Under the pieces are notes generated by a model. The model was not told the DNA's origin. It saw nothing but the letters and a program-made list of their open reading frames with translations, and made no database searches. From the IMG/VR virus record IMGVR_UViG_3300029855_000069: a stretch of DNA of 5,572 bases, one strand, 5' to 3'. How positions within the stretch are numbered: the first letter of the stretch is position 1; each line of letters starts with the position of its first letter. Both the position numbers and the translations under genes were made by a program. The DNA comes from a virus. Positions 1 through 5,572 of the stretch are shown one piece after another.

Positions 1-99
1 CTGAAAAACCGCATGGTTGTCACTTTCGTTTTCAGGTCGTACCAGTTCTACTTGATGTAACTGGTACGACTGACACCAATGTTGAATTGGTGTACTAAA
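1..99. repeat. Terminal direct repeat, exact copy of 5474..5572. It is an artefact or indicator of a circular genome (unit length ~5473 nt).
   Basis: Bases 1..99 (ctgaaaaaccgcatgg...ggtgtactaaa) recur verbatim at 5474..5572, which ends exactly at the window end. Confidence 0.9.
36..70 (+). promoter_or_regulatory. Putative rolling-circle origin hairpin: 12-bp perfect stem (36..47 / 59..70) with an 11-nt loop CTACTTGATGT containing the phiX174-like nick core ACTTG|AT.
   Basis: gtcgtaccagtt (36..47) is the exact reverse complement of aactggtacgac (59..70). Loop 48..58 resembles the phiX ori CAACTTG|ATATTAATAAC. The hairpin lies in the intergenic region between VP3 and VP1. Confidence 0.55.
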
Positions 100-124
100 T
101 ACAGATGCTAGGAGATGTATAAAA

Positions 125-1825
125 ATGTCAAAAAGAGCTACTCAGCACAGCTTTGCTATAAGCCCGCAAAATCAGATTCCCCGTTCTTCTTTCAAGCGTT
201 CGCATACAGTAAAAACCACACTGGATGCAGGTCGACTTGTTCCGTTTTATATCGATGAAGTCTACCCCGGTGATACTTTTAATTGTAAGGCGACGCTTTT
301 TGGTCGTATGGCTACGCCGATTGTTCCGGCGATGGATAATGCTTATATGGATACTTTTTTCTTTTTCGTTCCGTACCGTCTTCTTTGGAAGCACTGGAAG
401 GAGTTTAATGGCGAAAATCCGCTTGCCGGTTATCAGAGTACAGAGTATGAAGTACCGCAGATGACGGCCACCAATGCGCAGGTTCAGACGCTTTGGGACT
501 ATTTCGGTTTTCCGACCGATGTAAAAAATAAGCTTTCGGTTTCTGCTTTCCCTTTTAGAGCGTATTGGAAGATTTATAATGATTGGTTCCGCGACGAAAA
601 TCTTCAAAACGCTGTGTCCATTCAGACCGGTGCGCCGCTTTCTTCGACTTCCTCCGAAGATGATGCATATGGTGGTGATGCTACGCAGGATGCTACGACT
701 GCACAGTGTTTCTATCGTGGTAAGCGACATGACTATTTCACAAGCGCTTTACCGTGGCCGCAGAAAGGCCCTGGTGTAGAATTGCCGCTTGGCCAAACTG
801 CTTCTGTTTCCGGCTCTTTACCTCTTAGTGCCTATGCTTATGTTCCTAAGCCGACGAGTGATTGGTCGGTAGATAGTCCGAGTTTGTATGTCCATTCAGA
901 ATCTAATGCTTTTCAAACTCCTGATTTTTCTCCTGTAAATTTGCAAGGCGCCATTAAAGTTCCTTCTAATAGTGGTCCAATTACTCAAGATGTTCCTTTG
1001 CAGCTTAATATAGCTGGTACTGCTGATGCAACTAAAGCTACGGTCGATTTGTCTAGTGCGACAGCGATTACTATTAACAGCTTGCGTTCTGCATTTGCGC
1101 TTCAACGTTTTTATGAAAAAGATGCTCGTGGTGGTACCCGATATACTGAAATTATTCGCTCACATTTCGGTATTATTTCGCCTGATGCTCGGTTGCAACG
1201 CAGTGAGTATCTCGGTGGCGATTCAACACCAATTATGTTCAATCCTGTTCAACAGACGTCTTCTACGGACACTACGTCCCCGCAGGGCAACTTGTCTGCG
1301 TATGCTTTAATGAGTACGCGTGTTCACGGCTTTAATAAGTCGTTTACCGAACATGGAATTGTGATCGGTTTATGTAATATTCGTACCGATTTAAGTTATC
1401 AGCAAGGCATTAATAAGACCTGGCTTAGACAAACCCGTGAAGAATTCTATTGGCCTACCTTCGCCCATCTTGGCGAACAAGCTGTTCTTAATAAAGAAAT
1501 TTACGCGCAGGGTACTGAGAGTGACGACCAAGTTTTTGGTTATCAAGAACGTTATGCTGAATGCCGTTACCATCCTTCTATCATTACCGGCAAGATGCGC
1601 TCGACATATGCACAGAGTACGGATGTATGGCATTTTGCGCAAAAATTCGATGCGCTTCCCGCTCTCAATGGTGAGTTCATCCAAGACCAGGCCAGCTATC
1701 AAGCTATTAAGCGTATTAGTGCGGTGCAGTCTGAACCCCAGTTTTATCTTGATGCGTATTTAGATTTAAAATGTGCTCGCCCGATGCCGGTTTACGGCGT
1801 CCCTGGCATGCTTGATCACTTCTAA
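125..1825 (+). CDS. VP1: Microviridae major capsid protein VP1 (phiX174 F-protein family), 566 aa
   Basis: The length is typical of gokushovirus VP1. The N-terminal PRSSFKRSH.VKTTLDAGRLVP and the LQRFYEKDARGGTRYTEIIRSHFG block are hallmark gokushovirus VP1 motifs. AGGAG Shine-Dalgarno lies 10 nt upstream of the ATG. Confidence 0.95.
   Translation: MSKRATQHSFAISPQNQIPRSSFKRSHTVKTTLDAGRLVPFYIDEVYPGDTFNCKATLFGRMATPIVPAMDNAYMDTFFFFVPYRLLWKHWKEFNGENPLAGYQSTEYEVPQMTATNAQVQTLWDYFGFPTDVKNKLSVSAFPFRAYWKIYNDWFRDENLQNAVSIQTGAPLSSTSSEDDAYGGDATQDATTAQCFYRGKRHDYFTSALPWPQKGPGVELPLGQTASVSGSLPLSAYAYVPKPTSDWSVDSPSLYVHSESNAFQTPDFSPVNLQGAIKVPSNSGPITQDVPLQLNIAGTADATKATVDLSSATAITINSLRSAFALQRFYEKDARGGTRYTEIIRSHFGIISPDARLQRSEYLGGDSTPIMFNPVQQTSSTDTTSPQGNLSAYALMSTRVHGFNKSFTEHGIVIGLCNIRTDLSYQQGINKTWLRQTREEFYWPTFAHLGEQAVLNKEIYAQGTESDDQVFGYQERYAECRYHPSIITGKMRSTYAQSTDVWHFAQKFDALPALNGEFIQDQASYQAIKRISAVQSEPQFYLDAYLDLKCARPMPVYGVPGMLDHF
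767..1069 (+). other. Low-complexity S/T/A/P-rich insertion region inside VP1; probable hypervariable surface ('mushroom'-type) loop
   Basis: VP1 residues ~215-315 (GQTASVSGSLPLSAYAYVPKPTSDWSVDSPS...TADATKATVDLSSATAI) lack the conserved-core character and lie between conserved blocks, as for the gokushovirus VP1 IN5 insertion. Confidence 0.45.
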
Positions 1826-1841
1826 AAGGAGTTGATGATAT

Positions 1842-2885
1842 ATGAGTTTCTTATCGTCGGTTGCCGGCGCTGCACTCGGCATTTGGTCGGGTAATAAATC
1901 GGCTAATGCCCAGGCTGCACTTTCGCGTGAGCAAATGCAATGGCAATCACAAGAAGCACAAAAAACTCGCGATTGGCAAGAAAAAATGTCTTCTACGGCT
2001 CATCAGCGTGAGATCGAAGATCTGCGTAAAGCTGGATTAAATCCCATGTTGTCGGCAATGGGCGGTAACGGTGCTAGTACGCCTGCTGGTGCGACTGCTA
2101 GCTACTCGTCTAATGCGTATACTGGTTATGGTTCTGATGTGTCTAACGGTATTAATGCGATGTCCGGTATGTATTCTGCGAAGACAAATCGAAAGATTCA
2201 ACAGCAGCAAGAAAAAAACTTGGAACAGCAAAATTTGAATCTTAGTGCAGATACATATAAAAAGACGCAGGAAGGTCGTGCTGCATCGACTGAAGCAGAT
2301 TATAAAAAGGCTATGTTAGAGACTCAATTAGTGCAGCTACTTGCTGATGCGAATAATTTACAAGCTAACGCTGATTTTACAAACGGCGTCGGCACTGCGA
2401 AAGCACAGTCTGAGATTGATAAATACAATGCTGAAACTCGGTATATTAGTGGCCCGCAGACGGATGTCGCGAATGCGACGACTGCGAATTTAGGAGCGCA
2501 GACAAACCGGATTAATGCTTTACTGCCACATGAAATCGCGAAAATTGATAGCGATATCGAAAAAAATGTACATGAAATTTTACGAATTGATTCTGAAACG
2601 AGTTTAAATCAGGTTAAAATGATGACTGAAAAGTATGTGCAAGGCGAACTTAGTGCTCGATCGCTTGTTGAGTATTTGCAAGCTAAAGGTCAGACTGAAG
2701 ATAATGCGCTAAAGTTTGTAAATCGTGTGCGCGCTCAGATAGATCTAAAACAGTATCAAATTCAGAATCGCTATTCTGGTGTTACTCCGCAAGGCCCTTA
2801 TGAACTTTTGGGCCGCATTCTTGGTAATGCGAAAGGTCTTGTTGATGCTTCCCCGTTTGGCCTTGTCACGCAGGTTTTTAAGTGA
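1842..2885 (+). CDS. VP2: Minor capsid / DNA pilot protein VP2 (H-protein analogue), 347 aa
   Basis: Hydrophobic N-terminus (FLSSVAGAALGIWSG), a Q/A/N-rich coiled-coil-like body and the conserved HQREIEDLRKAGLNPML segment typical of gokushovirus VP2. It lies immediately after VP1. AAGGAGTTGAT Shine-Dalgarno lies 10 nt before the ATG. Confidence 0.85.
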   Translation: MSFLSSVAGAALGIWSGNKSANAQAALSREQMQWQSQEAQKTRDWQEKMSSTAHQREIEDLRKAGLNPMLSAMGGNGASTPAGATASYSSNAYTGYGSDVSNGINAMSGMYSAKTNRKIQQQQEKNLEQQNLNLSADTYKKTQEGRAASTEADYKKAMLETQLVQLLADANNLQANADFTNGVGTAKAQSEIDKYNAETRYISGPQTDVANATTANLGAQTNRINALLPHEIAKIDSDIEKNVHEILRIDSETSLNQVKMMTEKYVQGELSARSLVEYLQAKGQTEDNALKFVNRVRAQIDLKQYQIQNRYSGVTPQGPYELLGRILGNAKGLVDASPFGLVTQVFK

Positions 2886-2981
2886 TCTCGGTTTTCCCTT
2901 GATTGCCCTGGTGAAATTGTTTTACTCTCGTATTAGTGGAACGGTGACGTACTGTGGCGTTTAGCCTATCATCCCTTTCTA

Positions 2982-3010
2982 TTGACATTCTGTTAGATAT
3001 ATGTTAGAAT
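2982..3010 (+). promoter_or_regulatory. Near-consensus sigma70-type promoter: TTGACA (2982..2987), 17-nt spacer, TAGAAT (3005..3010)
   Basis: Perfect -35 hexamer, a 5/6 match to the -10 hexamer and the optimal 17-nt spacer, about 20 nt upstream of the start of the small-gene/rep cluster (ATG 3030). Confidence 0.55.
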
Positions 3011-3029
3011 AATAACAGAGGTGATAGAT

Positions 3030-3194
3030 ATGAGAAAAACTCGTAGTATTTATTGTTCAGATGATGAGTACAAGCATCTGAAGATCGCATTACGTTTTAT
3101 GCGCGTTTTTGATGCGCTGTCGGTTGATGACTTGTCTGATGAGCAGCGGTCTAAGTATTTCCTGGAAATCATAAAAGGAGATGATGAAGAATGA
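3030..3194 (+). CDS. Hypothetical small acidic protein, 54 aa (MRKTRSIYCSDDEYKHLKIALRFMRVFDALSVDDLSDEQRSKYFLEIIKGDDEE)
   Basis: Translated by hand; not in the supplied ORF track. AGAGG Shine-Dalgarno lies 8 nt upstream and the gene is immediately downstream of the promoter. Its stop TGA overlaps the ATG of the next gene (ATGA). Confidence 0.5.
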   Translation: MRKTRSIYCSDDEYKHLKIALRFMRVFDALSVDDLSDEQRSKYFLEIIKGDDEE

Positions 3195-3286
3195 AAGTTG
3201 GTACTCCGGTCGCGTTGTTTTGTTGGCTTGTACTAGCCATTTTAGTTGTCTCCTTAGTGATTAGTATATTGGATGTTTTTTTATAA
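3191..3286 (+). CDS. 31-aa single-pass transmembrane peptide (MKVGTPVALFCWLVLAILVVSLVISILDVFL); candidate lysis/membrane-targeting peptide
   Basis: AAGGAG (3175..3180) lies exactly 10 nt before ATG 3191, the same spacing as five other genes in this genome. ATGA overlap with the upstream gene. Its stop TAA overlaps the Shine-Dalgarno box of the downstream gene. About 22 consecutive hydrophobic residues. Confidence 0.5.
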   Translation: MKVGTPVALFCWLVLAILVVSLVISILDVFL

Positions 3287-3300
3287 GGAGTTGATGTTGT

Positions 3301-3414
3301 ATGAAACGACAAAAAATGAGTAAAAAAAAGAGTAATAAAAACTTCCGTCGCGGAATGACAGTTAATCCGAAAAATAAGCGCCCCATCCCCATGCGCGGTG
3401 GTTTTAGAATGTAA
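3301..3414 (+). CDS. 37-aa highly basic peptide (MKRQKMSKKKSNKNFRRGMTVNPKNKRPIPMRGGFRM); DNA-binding/packaging protein analogous to phiX174 J / gokushovirus ORF8
   Basis: 14 of 37 residues are K/R. AAGGAGTTGAT Shine-Dalgarno with 10-nt spacing. The gene sits directly upstream of rep. Missed by the ORF track because of its size. Confidence 0.6.
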   Translation: MKRQKMSKKKSNKNFRRGMTVNPKNKRPIPMRGGFRM

Positions 3415-3448
3415 TGTTAGTTTTGATTTTCCCTGGAGTTGATTTGTC

Positions 3449-4366
3449 ATGCCATGCTATCATCCTATTCCAATGTGGTATAGTAAAGAGATAAATAAAG
3501 AAACTGGCAAACGCTCTTTGACGGCGAATTATGGTAATGCCTGGCGCCCACTTGGTCGGCTTCCGGAGACAATTTATGTTCCGTGTGGCCAGTGTGTCGG
3601 CTGTCGGCTTGAGTATAGCCGACAGTGGGCCATGCGTTGTGTACATGAGTTTGAAACAGCCGGTCGTGTTGGATCCTTCCTCACTCTTACATATAGTCCC
3701 GAACATTTGCCGGAAGATGGTAGAGTTCATAAAGACGTTTTTCAAAAGTTCATGAAACGTCTTCGAAAACGGTTTGGTAGCGGCCTTCGCTTCTTCGCTT
3801 GTGGTGAATACGGCCACAAGTTTAAAAGACCGCACTATCATGCAGTTATTTTTGGCTTGCGATTCCCGGATTTAATGATCCATACAGTTAAGCACGGTTT
3901 CCAGTATTATCGTAGTCCTACATTGGAGAAGTTGTGGCCCTACGGATTCAGCTTGATCGGCAGCGTTACGTTTGAGTCGTGCGCTTATGTTGCTCGTTAT
4001 GTGATGAAAAAGCAGAAAGGTGATAATGTTGACGAATCTTTGCAGCCGTTTGTCTTAATGTCACGCATGCCAGGCCTTGGCCATGATTGGTATGAAAAGT
4101 ATAAAAGCCAGGTTTATCCGAACGACTTCATTGTCGTCCGTGACGGTGTGACTTGTAAGCCCCCCGCATATTATGATTCCTTGTTAGAAAAGGACGATCC
4201 CGATTTGTATGAGAAAGTTAAAGAGGCCCGCCAAGACAAGTATCGTCGTGACGAGTCAATGACAACGGAAGAGTATGAAATTGCTCAGATCCAAGAGCGG
4301 TTAAAGGCTCGTAAGCTAACTAAACTTGTACGCCGGCTGCATGACGATGTAGATATGTACGAGTAA
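3449..4366 (+). CDS. VP4: Replication initiation protein VP4 (rolling-circle Rep, phiX174 gpA superfamily), 305 aa
   Basis: RCR motif I FLTLTY, motif II PHYHAVIFG (HUH) and motif III AYVARYVMKK (Y-x-x-x-Y catalytic tyrosines, cf. phiX gpA), plus the CGQCVGC cysteine cluster conserved in gokushovirus VP4. GGAGTTGAT Shine-Dalgarno lies 10 nt upstream. Confidence 0.93.
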   Translation: MPCYHPIPMWYSKEINKETGKRSLTANYGNAWRPLGRLPETIYVPCGQCVGCRLEYSRQWAMRCVHEFETAGRVGSFLTLTYSPEHLPEDGRVHKDVFQKFMKRLRKRFGSGLRFFACGEYGHKFKRPHYHAVIFGLRFPDLMIHTVKHGFQYYRSPTLEKLWPYGFSLIGSVTFESCAYVARYVMKKQKGDNVDESLQPFVLMSRMPGLGHDWYEKYKSQVYPNDFIVVRDGVTCKPPAYYDSLLEKDDPDLYEKVKEARQDKYRRDESMTTEEYEIAQIQERLKARKLTKLVRRLHDDVDMYE

Positions 4367-4380
4367 ATGTCATTTGACAT
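4365..4380. promoter_or_regulatory. Palindrome AATGTCA-TT-TGACATT overlapping the rep stop codon; possible operator or weak terminator
   Basis: Perfect 7-bp inverted repeat with a 2-nt spacer, followed by TTT. TTGACA (4374..4379) inside it is also a perfect -35 hexamer. Confidence 0.35.
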
Positions 4381-4384
4381 TTTG

Positions 4385-4393
4385 CCCCCCCCC
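4385..4393. repeat. C9 homopolymer tract
   Basis: Nine consecutive C residues, counted directly in the sequence. Confidence 0.9.
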
Positions 4394-4412
4394 GTATGGT
4401 ACTGTTGTACTA

Positions 4413-4486
4413 GCGAGAGGGCATTTTTTTTTAAATTCAAAAAGAGCGATCCTTTTCTGTTACTTCAAGCAACACTTCCCTCTCGC
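4413..4486. repeat. 9-bp inverted repeat gcgagaggg / ccctctcgc flanking a 56-nt AT-rich spacer that contains the T9 tract
   Basis: 4413..4421 is the reverse complement of 4478..4486. Together with the adjacent 10-bp palindrome acatatatgt (4504..4513) it marks a structured non-coding region. Confidence 0.6.
4424..4432. repeat. T9 homopolymer tract
   Basis: Nine consecutive T residues, counted directly in the sequence. Confidence 0.9.
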
Positions 4487-4736
4487 GAAAGGAGGTATTT
4501 TGCACATATATGTACATCGGTCGTATGAATCTTTTGACCAGGTAGATTTGTGGCAAATTTATCGTAAAGTGCGTAATACTGATATTACGGATGTTATTTG
4601 TTTTTCGCCTTGGAAGACAAAGTATTTCCACGGAAGGAGTGAACTTAGAAATCACTATTCTCATGCGTATCTTACACGTTATTGTCGCCGCTGTTTTTGA
4701 TTTTATTCTTAATATTTTAAAAGGAGTTGTTACGAA

Positions 4737-5015
4737 ATGCTTAAGGTTTATTCAATCTTGGATGATAAGGCACAGTGCTTTAATACGCCGTACTTTGCCC
4801 AGAATGACCTGGTTGCTAGCCGTTCTTTTAGTGATTTGTGTAATGATAGTCGGAGTCTTGTTAGTCAGCACCTCGGCGATTTCCACTTGTATTGTCTAGG
4901 TGAGTTTGATGATGAAAAAGGTTTTCTCAAGCCTTATGATGTGCCTGCTTTTATTTGCCATGCAATGCAATGCGCTAATGTTGAAAGGAGCGAAGCGAAT
5001 GGAGATACGCTCTAG
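4737..5015 (+). CDS. Hypothetical protein, 92 aa; possibly the small ORF5/VP5-type protein of gokushoviruses (function unknown)
   Basis: AAGGAGTTGTT Shine-Dalgarno exactly 10 nt before the ATG. Its 3' end overlaps the VP3 start by 17 nt in another frame. No recognisable motif. Confidence 0.5.
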   Translation: MLKVYSILDDKAQCFNTPYFAQNDLVASRSFSDLCNDSRSLVSQHLGDFHLYCLGEFDDEKGFLKPYDVPAFICHAMQCANVERSEANGDTL

Positions 5016-5436
5016 ATATAATGCTGGTACTCGTGAGGGTTGGAAATCGTCTGTCCCTTCCATGACGCAGCAGCAGTTTAAGGACGAAGCAGATATCAAT
5101 TATATCGTTTCAATGTACGATTCTTCCGGCGTTATGCCGACTTTCCATGGTGACGGTCAGCCGGCGCAGCCTGTTTTCGGTGATTTTGCATCGCTGCCGG
5201 ATAATGCACAGGAGATGTACAATCGTATGATAGAAGCTAAAAGTAACTTTGACAATTTGCCCTTGGACGTTCGTAAGCGTTTTAATTATGACCCTGCTGC
5301 TTTCTTAGAGTTTGTCGATAATCCGGAAAATTTAGATGAGCTCGTGGCCATGGGTCTTGCTACTAAGACTGTTATTAAGTCTGATAATCATACGGAAAAT
5401 ACGGATAATAATGCAGGCGATAAAGCCAATGGATAA
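4999..5436 (+). CDS. VP3: Internal scaffolding protein VP3, 145 aa from ATG 4999 (the ORF-track start at 4900 is probably too far upstream)
   Basis: Contains the conserved gokushovirus VP3 motifs SMTQQQFKDEADINYIV and RKRFNYDPAAFLEFVDNPENL. AAGGAG (4985..4990) lies 8 nt before ATG 4999; the upstream ATG at 4900 has no Shine-Dalgarno box and lies inside the 92-aa gene. Confidence 0.85.
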   Translation: MEIRSRYNAGTREGWKSSVPSMTQQQFKDEADINYIVSMYDSSGVMPTFHGDGQPAQPVFGDFASLPDNAQEMYNRMIEAKSNFDNLPLDVRKRFNYDPAAFLEFVDNPENLDELVAMGLATKTVIKSDNHTENTDNNAGDKANG

Positions 5437-5473
5437 GCATTTTGTCAATAAATGTCACTTTTTCTCAGAAAAG

Positions 5474-5572
5474 CTGAAAAACCGCATGGTTGTCACTTTC
5501 GTTTTCAGGTCGTACCAGTTCTACTTGATGTAACTGGTACGACTGACACCAATGTTGAATTGGTGTACTAAA
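5474..5572. repeat. Second copy of the terminal redundancy (identical to 1..99). It includes a second copy of the ori hairpin at 5509..5543.
   Basis: Exact 99-nt identity with the window start. Confidence 0.9.

Follow-up and report, generated by a model that had tools for sequence, protein, structure and literature searches.

The hairpin and adjoining box at positions 36–79 of the window probably constitute the viral-strand rolling-circle origin of a gokushovirus that is nicked by the phage Rep protein, VP4. The element is one example of a module which, as delineated by sequence comparison, consists of a paired stem of variable sequence, the loop core CTTGAT and a TGACACC box located 14 nt further on. 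The original prediction of a putative rolling-circle origin is supported by comparative evidence that comprises conservation in the family, covariation of the stem, a phiX174-like site, the spacing between the elements and the Rep motif.

Hairpin and box in the VP3-VP1 intergenic region

The window, which is the whole stretch of DNA that was analyzed, contains 5572 bases and represents a 5473-nt gokushovirus circle with a 99-nt exact terminal overlap in which positions 1–99 equal 5474–5572. The exact repeat at the ends indicates that the genome is circular and that the overlap arose during assembly, so that the hairpin is doubled only as an artifact. The nearest public genomes in megablast searches are pig-gut Microviridae with ~85% identity. 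All genes in the window are on the plus strand, which is also the strand of the hairpin motif. The relevant features are as follows.

36–47, plus strand: hairpin 5′ arm, GTCGTACCAGTT, part of a perfect 12-nt inverted repeat whose stem columns covary across 78 distinct members
48–58, plus strand: hairpin loop, CTACTTGATGT, 11 nt, with the core CTTGAT at 51–56
59–70, plus strand: hairpin 3′ arm, AACTGGTACGAC, which takes up the interval from the nick motif to the box
71–79, plus strand: conserved box TGACACCAA, at +17 to +25 from the predicted nick, a putative Rep-binding element
73–93, plus strand: second hairpin, ACACCAAT / ATTGGTGT, with arms at 73–80 and 86–93 and a 5-nt loop
125–1825, plus strand: VP1 capsid protein (Phage_F, E = 4e-167)
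1842–2885, plus strand: VP2, assigned by position and size
3449–4366, plus strand: VP4, Rep (Pfam PF23343, E = 5.7e-22)
3833–3841, 3986–3988 and 3998–4000: predicted catalytic residues of VP4, namely the HUH motif (HYH), Y180 and Y184, respectively
4737–5015, plus strand: VP5 (Phage_ORF5)
4999–5436, plus strand: VP3 scaffold protein (Chlamy_scaf)
5509–5552, plus strand: duplicate of the hairpin (5509–5543) and box, a terminal-overlap copy and not a separate element

The perfect 12-bp stem that had been described from the sequence is present, with arms at 36–47 and 59–70 that are 100% complementary and separated by 11 nt, and the hairpin is located between VP3 (4999–5436) and VP1 (125–1825) as originally placed. 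The likeness of the loop to the phiX174 nick site also was correctly noted: ACTTGAT at 50–56 is identical to the heptamer of the gpA site CAACTTG^AT. When folded as single-stranded DNA, the hairpin has a free energy of −11.8 kcal/mol compared to −2.4 ± 1.4 kcal/mol for shuffled sequences (z = −6.7), with none of 200 shuffles equaling the native value, and 36–70 is the only strong local hairpin in the 5473-nt genome. The ACTTGAT motif alone is unremarkable in the window as approximately one copy is expected by chance. Among the 13 CTTG[AT]T sites in the genome, a stem is found solely at the hairpin site (12 bp versus ≤3 bp elsewhere), which also is the only one with TGACACC at +17 to +23. In 13 close relatives with an overall identity of 86–93%, there is essentially no variation at 36–79.

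Neither the box at 71–79 nor the second hairpin at 73–93 featured in the original prediction. The second hairpin is formed by pairing of the box with its own inverted copy and has a free energy of −7.1 kcal/mol (z = −4.0). In 22% of modules, compared to ~3% of controls, the box recurs in inverted form no more than 80 nt downstream, and a stable second hairpin is possessed by 35% of modules compared to 5% of shuffled sequences. The structure was rejected as a core part of the module as it is restricted to a minority of lineages and, on the sequences compared, is an accessory, lineage-specific feature. Immediately 5′ of the first hairpin, the direct repeat TGTCACTTT is present in two copies 38 nt apart at 5453–5461 and 5491–5499 (equivalent to 18–26). 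With two short copies the repeat is statistically not significant, and it is confined to the close lineage.

Distribution and conservation of the module

Comparison of equivalent regions in relatives, which had been proposed as a check of the hairpin, revealed that the stem-loop, loop core and adjoining box are kept across Gokushovirinae with covariation in the stem. In megablast searches, microvirus genomes from a dog (MG945491) and a rodent (PQ006928), which are otherwise unrelated, matched the window at 29–79 only. In both, the stem is identical to that of the window and is accompanied by the loop core ACTTGATGT and downstream TGACACCAA in an intergenic position after VP3, and their proteins are 37–56% identical to those encoded by the window. 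When viral contigs were scanned for the stem irrespective of the loop, YACTTGAT loops were present in ~40 contigs of microvirus size; the loops were unrelated in large non-microvirus contigs that share the stem palindrome. In a second scan, the loop core and box were the sole constraints (ACTTGAT-N12-26-TGACACCAA); this retrieved >120 loci, mostly on contigs of 4–6 kb, that correspond to ~100 distinct elements. The stem sequences of these elements differ freely, with perfect pairing over 8–19 bp, and the loop between the arms varies from 8 to 16 nt. Although distances of 12–26 nt were allowed, 92 of 108 members have 14 nt between GAT and TGAC, a further 14 have 15 nt and two have 13 nt.

An unbiased set of gokushovirus genomes was assembled by VP1 homology alone. 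Without any stem requirement, these genomes produced 70 matches to the motif plus box, of which 67 were on the coding strand. A perfect stem of at least 7 bp accompanied 63 of the 70 matches compared to 0.7% of controls with shuffled flanks. A covariance model was then built from 14 diverse seeds, with E < 0.01 taken as significant. The model detected one true match in the window at 40–79 (49 bits, E ~1e-13), which is repeated identically at 5513–5552 through the terminal overlap; the next best score was 7.6 bits. Of the 67 genomes obtained through capsid homology, 59 gave coding-strand matches with E < 0.01, and in none of the 67 was the primary match on the other strand, the minus-strand matches being weaker echoes of the same palindromes. 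Most sampled genomes have a single match. Where a few have a second coding-strand match, it is either close to a contig end or separated from the first by the length of one genome, and such cases resemble terminal overlaps. A significant model match was missing in eight of the 67 sampled genomes, several of which carry recognizable variants such as CTCTTGAT or CTTGTT. Coding-strand placement applies to 103 of the 108 members that were retrieved with the core and box, and to all 59 sampled genomes with a significant match.

Stem pairing was assessed with 78 distinct sequences. Standard pairs occupied 96.5% of cells compared to 66% in shuffled and 17–39% in slid controls. Compensatory changes were evident in all ten stem pairs. 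Double-change cells numbered 181 in the native sequences and 49 ± 5 in shuffled controls, none of 500 of which attained the native number. In contrast to the variable stem columns, conservation in the VP1-sampled family is 100/100/98/100/92/100% for the positions of the loop core C/T/T/G/A/T and 98/100/100/98/98/95/91% for TGACACC, a profile that is somewhat inflated as the covariance model rewards CTTGAT and TGACACC.

The module is nearly always positioned 3′ of VP3 despite differences in gene order between lineages. The order VP1-VP2-VP3-module-VP4-VP5 in contigs L011, L014, L018, L021, L042, L049, L051, L055 and L074 differs from VP4-VP5-VP3-module-VP1-VP2 in the group that includes the window. 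As the module remains directly 3′ of VP3 in both arrangements, the two act as a single block at the point where synteny is broken. Certain contigs of 7–8 kb possess two modules, including L189 (2011–2052 and 6676–6717, with different stems), L097 (1271–1311 and 5801–5841) and L242. Concatemers, chimeric assembly or the co-assembly of relatives may account for these contigs.

The module or a variant of it also is present in cultured phages.

Chp2, 2904–2951: module between VP3 and ORF8/Rep, CTAGCGTATAACAG-TCTACTTGAT-CTGTTATACGCTAG-GTGATAGCAA
EC6098 (E. coli), 1685–1726: module between vp3 and vp1, CCTGGCACAG-CGCCCTACTTGATGTAA-CTGTGCCAGG-TGACACCGAA
SpV4, starting at 512: variant with loop ATTACTTGTTATA, then TTGACGAC
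phiMH2K, 3296–3335: variant, loop with CTACTTGTTGTAA
Chp1, starting at 2750: variant with loop CCTCTTGGCT, then GCGACACAA

The variant hairpins of SpV4, phiMH2K and Chp1 are weak, yet each is the best model match in its own genome and occupies the equivalent position. The +1 base differs in these phages, with CTTGTT in SpV4 and phiMH2K and CTTGGC in Chp1. A scan of bacterial genomes gave 64 matches. Microvirus genes adjoin all 14 matches with a stem of at least 7 bp but none of the 50 that are stemless. In a prophage of Intestinirhabdus alba the module is at 2700–2739 between VP3 and VP1, and a dif-like site is at 5387–5414. No copy of the Intestinirhabdus-type module region was found in E. 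coli complete genomes. Within positions 1–5414 of Intestinirhabdus alba Scaffold7 (L315), the VP1 C-terminus and VP2 precede a complete VP4-VP5-VP3-VP1-VP2 unit that ends at the dif-like site, and the scaffold appears to contain tandem copies of a gokushovirus prophage.

In seven genomes retrieved with the motif, the whole module is on the non-coding strand. Two clades are inverted in this manner, one a large gut clade and the other small and GC-rich, with the module opposite to every gene. Representative coordinates are as follows.

L344, 3927–3969 (minus strand): inverted module
L087, 2847–2889: inverted module
L009, 397–438: inverted module
L045, 2728–2769: inverted module

VP1-homology sampling from one inverted genome recovered 182 relatives, of which 79 were scanned (L344–L422). 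One strong match, invariably opposite to the VP1 strand, was found in 73 of these 79 genomes. The members of the large clade are uncultured gokushoviruses of the human, pig and monkey gut in which the module abuts the Rep stop codon. An ambisense layout was rejected for the inverted clade as the recognizable genes of L344 are all on one strand. Beside the inverted modules of L344 and L087, at 3990–4035 and 2895–2940, respectively, there is a GC-rich alternating tract of ~40 nt, (CGCGCA/CGCACG)n, followed by a very AT-rich stretch. The tract might serve as a promoter region or DNA-unwinding element, or might be prone to form Z-DNA.

Origin reading and alternative interpretations

The phiX174 origin has a domain structure in which a downstream recognition block plays a role. 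The origin is annotated at 4306 with the sequence CAACTTG^ATATTAATAACACTATAGACCAC. The gokushovirus loop core is identical to it over the heptamer ACTTGAT across the nick, GAC is at +18 to +20 from the nick in both elements, and in each case the site is on the coding (viral) strand of a phage whose cognate Rep possesses an HUH motif and the sequence YVA(R/K)YVxKK. VP4 aligns with phiX174 gpA across the HUH motif (HYHAVIF versus HFHAVHF) and in the two-tyrosine motif (AYVARYVMKK versus FYVAKYVNKK, which includes the catalytic residues Y343 and Y347 of gpA), and is presumed from this resemblance to be the HUH endonuclease that nicks the loop. The phiX174 origin differs in that a hairpin is absent, and phiX174 gave no match to the covariance model. 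Moreover, its spacer is AT-rich whereas that in the window is the stem arm GTAACTGGTACGAC with 50% GC, it is located inside gene A whereas the window element is intergenic, and its downstream block is GACCAC in place of TGACACC. From these comparisons we infer that 36–79 and the 30-bp phiX174 origin are homologs, the former being displayed on a stem-loop, and the TGACACC box is a putative Rep-binding site. By homology to the gpA site, the predicted position of the VP4 nick is between G54 and A55.

In the proposed mechanism, the inverted repeat would extrude or breathe in the supercoiled replicative form, thereby exposing CTTGAT as single-stranded DNA in the loop, and VP4 would dock on the TGACACC box at its fixed position 14 nt downstream. 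One of the two active-site tyrosines would cut between G54 and A55 and link VP4 to the 5′ phosphate. Host polymerase would extend the 3′ OH while the nicked strand is displaced. After one round, the hairpin would re-form on the displaced strand, which the second tyrosine would cleave and rejoin, freeing a circular single strand for packaging. The 11-nt loop is large for easy cruciform extrusion, which counts against this origin reading, as do the two features of the phiX174 origin that are missing, the variants at the +1 base, the eight of 67 genomes without a match, and the existence of two inverted clades. In its favor, the DNA sequence of the module is preserved even where it is inverted relative to transcription.

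Rolling-circle plasmids of the pC194/pUB110 family have double-strand origins with the nick site CTTG^ATA and a related class of HUH Rep. They share the CTTGAT nick core with the gokushovirus module, but are plasmid replicons in which the surrounding architecture and Rep-binding elements are different. The origins of CRESS-DNA viruses (circoviruses, geminiviruses and nanoviruses) resemble the module in that the nick site is in the loop of a conserved intergenic stem-loop that is adjoined at a fixed offset by a Rep-binding sequence, although binding to the gokushovirus box is putative. These origins differ in the nick motif (NANTATT^AC versus CTTG^AT), in the use of direct iterons versus a single box with an occasional inverted copy, and in the replication protein, as the gokushovirus Rep is without a helicase domain and uses two tyrosines. 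A CRESS-DNA-type origin was rejected for the window: the loop CTACTTGATGT is not the nonanucleotide NANTATTAC, there are no direct iterons, and VP4 has a nuclease-type domain only with no SF3 helicase.

A reading of the module as the complementary-strand (minus-strand) origin, recognized by host priming enzymes as are the n′/PriA site of phiX174 and the primase hairpins of G4, is improbable. A stable intergenic hairpin on the packaged strand fits that role, as does the fixed orientation of the module within clades. Furthermore, conserved intergenic hairpins with compensatory substitutions near Rep in reekeekee- and roodoodoo-microviruses were tentatively connected by their authors with minus-strand priming, with no nick motif reported (Olo Ndela et al., 2022; PMC9865509). 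However, the near-invariant parts of the gokushovirus module are the loop core and box and not the structure, and a minus-strand origin leaves the gpA cleavage sequence with its phiX174-like GAC spacing unexplained. The occurrence of the same core and box in phages of Chlamydia and E. coli and in gut and marine phages suggests that the reader is phage-encoded rather than one of diverse host primases.

The sequence conservation of box and stem also might be expected if the module were bound by some other protein, of the phage or the host, with no part in nicking; it could then be a packaging signal, an operator or a site for the small basic DNA-binding protein. The enrichment of an inverted copy of the box downstream (22% versus 3%) resembles a dimeric site. 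This interpretation, which is judged quite improbable, does not explain the identity with the phiX174 heptamer, the covarying stem or the fixed 14-nt spacing. Packaging of phiX174 itself is origin-dependent, and thus the other-protein or packaging interpretation largely collapses into the origin reading.

The location of the hairpin at the 3′ end of VP3 in a probable polycistronic transcript raises the prospect of an RNA-level element, i.e., an intrinsic terminator, an attenuator or an mRNA-stabilizing hairpin. A terminator is at odds with the 11-nt loop, with TGACACCAAT following in place of a T-run, and with the absence of the hairpin from seven terminator-like sites identified by a scan; nor is a conserved loop sequence expected of one. 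The inverted clade, with 73 model matches, keeps ACTTGAT and TGACACC on the non-transcribed strand so that any RNA would carry the complements, which contradicts a role in RNA. A search of Rfam produced no match for the module. An RNA-level function was rejected and is very improbable. Finally, enterobacterial gokushovirus prophages integrate at dif motifs (PMC7062461), but a dif- or att-like site for XerCD-mediated integration, for which the inverted repeat in a non-coding region might speak, is scarcely credible for the module and is refuted for the two prophage lineages examined, EC6098 and Intestinirhabdus alba, in which the module is internal to the phage genes and apart from the dif sites (in EC6098, the dif motif annotated at 1–28 is away from the module at 1685–1726), and a loop of 8–16 nt is unsuited to a tyrosine-recombinase core.

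Implications and other features of the genome

In rolling-circle replication the nicked strand is displaced and packaged. If the module is the origin, phages with an inverted module would therefore encapsidate the antisense strand. In all seven inverted genomes, the coding strand has a T-A skew at four-fold sites between −0.43 and −0.83 (strongly A-rich) compared to +0.25 ± 0.40 in the normal group, but values in the latter range from −0.68 to +0.83 and the overlap renders this strand-composition support for antisense packaging suggestive only. Antisense packaging is, to our knowledge, unprecedented in Microviridae, a family defined as positive-sense. The chances are about even that the inverted clades are the first negative-sense Microviridae and that hairpin plus box is the ancestral microvirus origin from which the hairpin-less phiX174 form was derived. 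Antisense-packaged microviruses, if genuine, would revise a defining property of the family, and the evolution of the phiX174 origin would be tied to a hairpin-based ancestor.

In viromes from gut, marine and soil sources, gokushoviruses rank among the most abundant ssDNA phages. The searchable literature yielded no account of their origin or of a nick hairpin; the original Chp2, phiMH2K and chlamydiaphage papers were outside the scope of this search and may mention one in passing. As far as can be determined, the module has not been described before; it probably represents a version of the phiX174-type origin that is displayed on a hairpin and is general throughout Gokushovirinae. Definition of an element of ~45 nt composed of the stem-loop, CTTGAT and the TGACACC box makes the gokushovirus origin testable, and the presence of the module in EC6098 and Chp2 renders nicking, origin-plasmid and mutagenesis assays feasible. 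The module also provides a natural zero coordinate and orientation marker for the annotation of thousands of metagenomic microvirus genomes, as well as a handle for gokushovirus-based vectors, including those for Chlamydia.

The intergenic region that contains the hairpin and the region downstream of rep at 4367–4736 originally were considered to be the only sizeable non-coding stretches. Both are indeed non-coding, but a third is present at 2886–3029. An alternative origin within 4367–4736 was rejected as this region has no motif with a stem, is 65% alignable in close relatives and includes a broken ORF. The region is a variable spacer 3′ of rep. It has a palindrome, AATGTCATTTGACATT, at the stop codon of rep, and further contains C9 and T9 homopolymers as well as an imperfect inverted repeat (4413–4435/4464–4486). 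Its ORF of 108 amino acids (4374–4700) is interrupted by stop codons in relatives.

The third non-coding stretch, downstream of VP2, includes the best sigma-70-like promoter sequence in the genome at 2982–3010, which comprises TTGACA, a 17-nt spacer, TAGAAT and an extended −10 TG, with 11 of 12 matches. This stretch and the small ORFs at 3030–3194 and 3191–3286 together form a segment (2886–3286) that is alignable in approximately half of the 13 close relatives and, judged by these alignments, is an accessory indel region. A translation-initiation motif of ~26 nt, TAAAAGGAGTTGATGnnnnATG, is repeated ahead of four genes, namely VP2, two small ORFs and VP5, with copies at 1820–1845, 3169–3194, 3279–3304 and 4715–4740.
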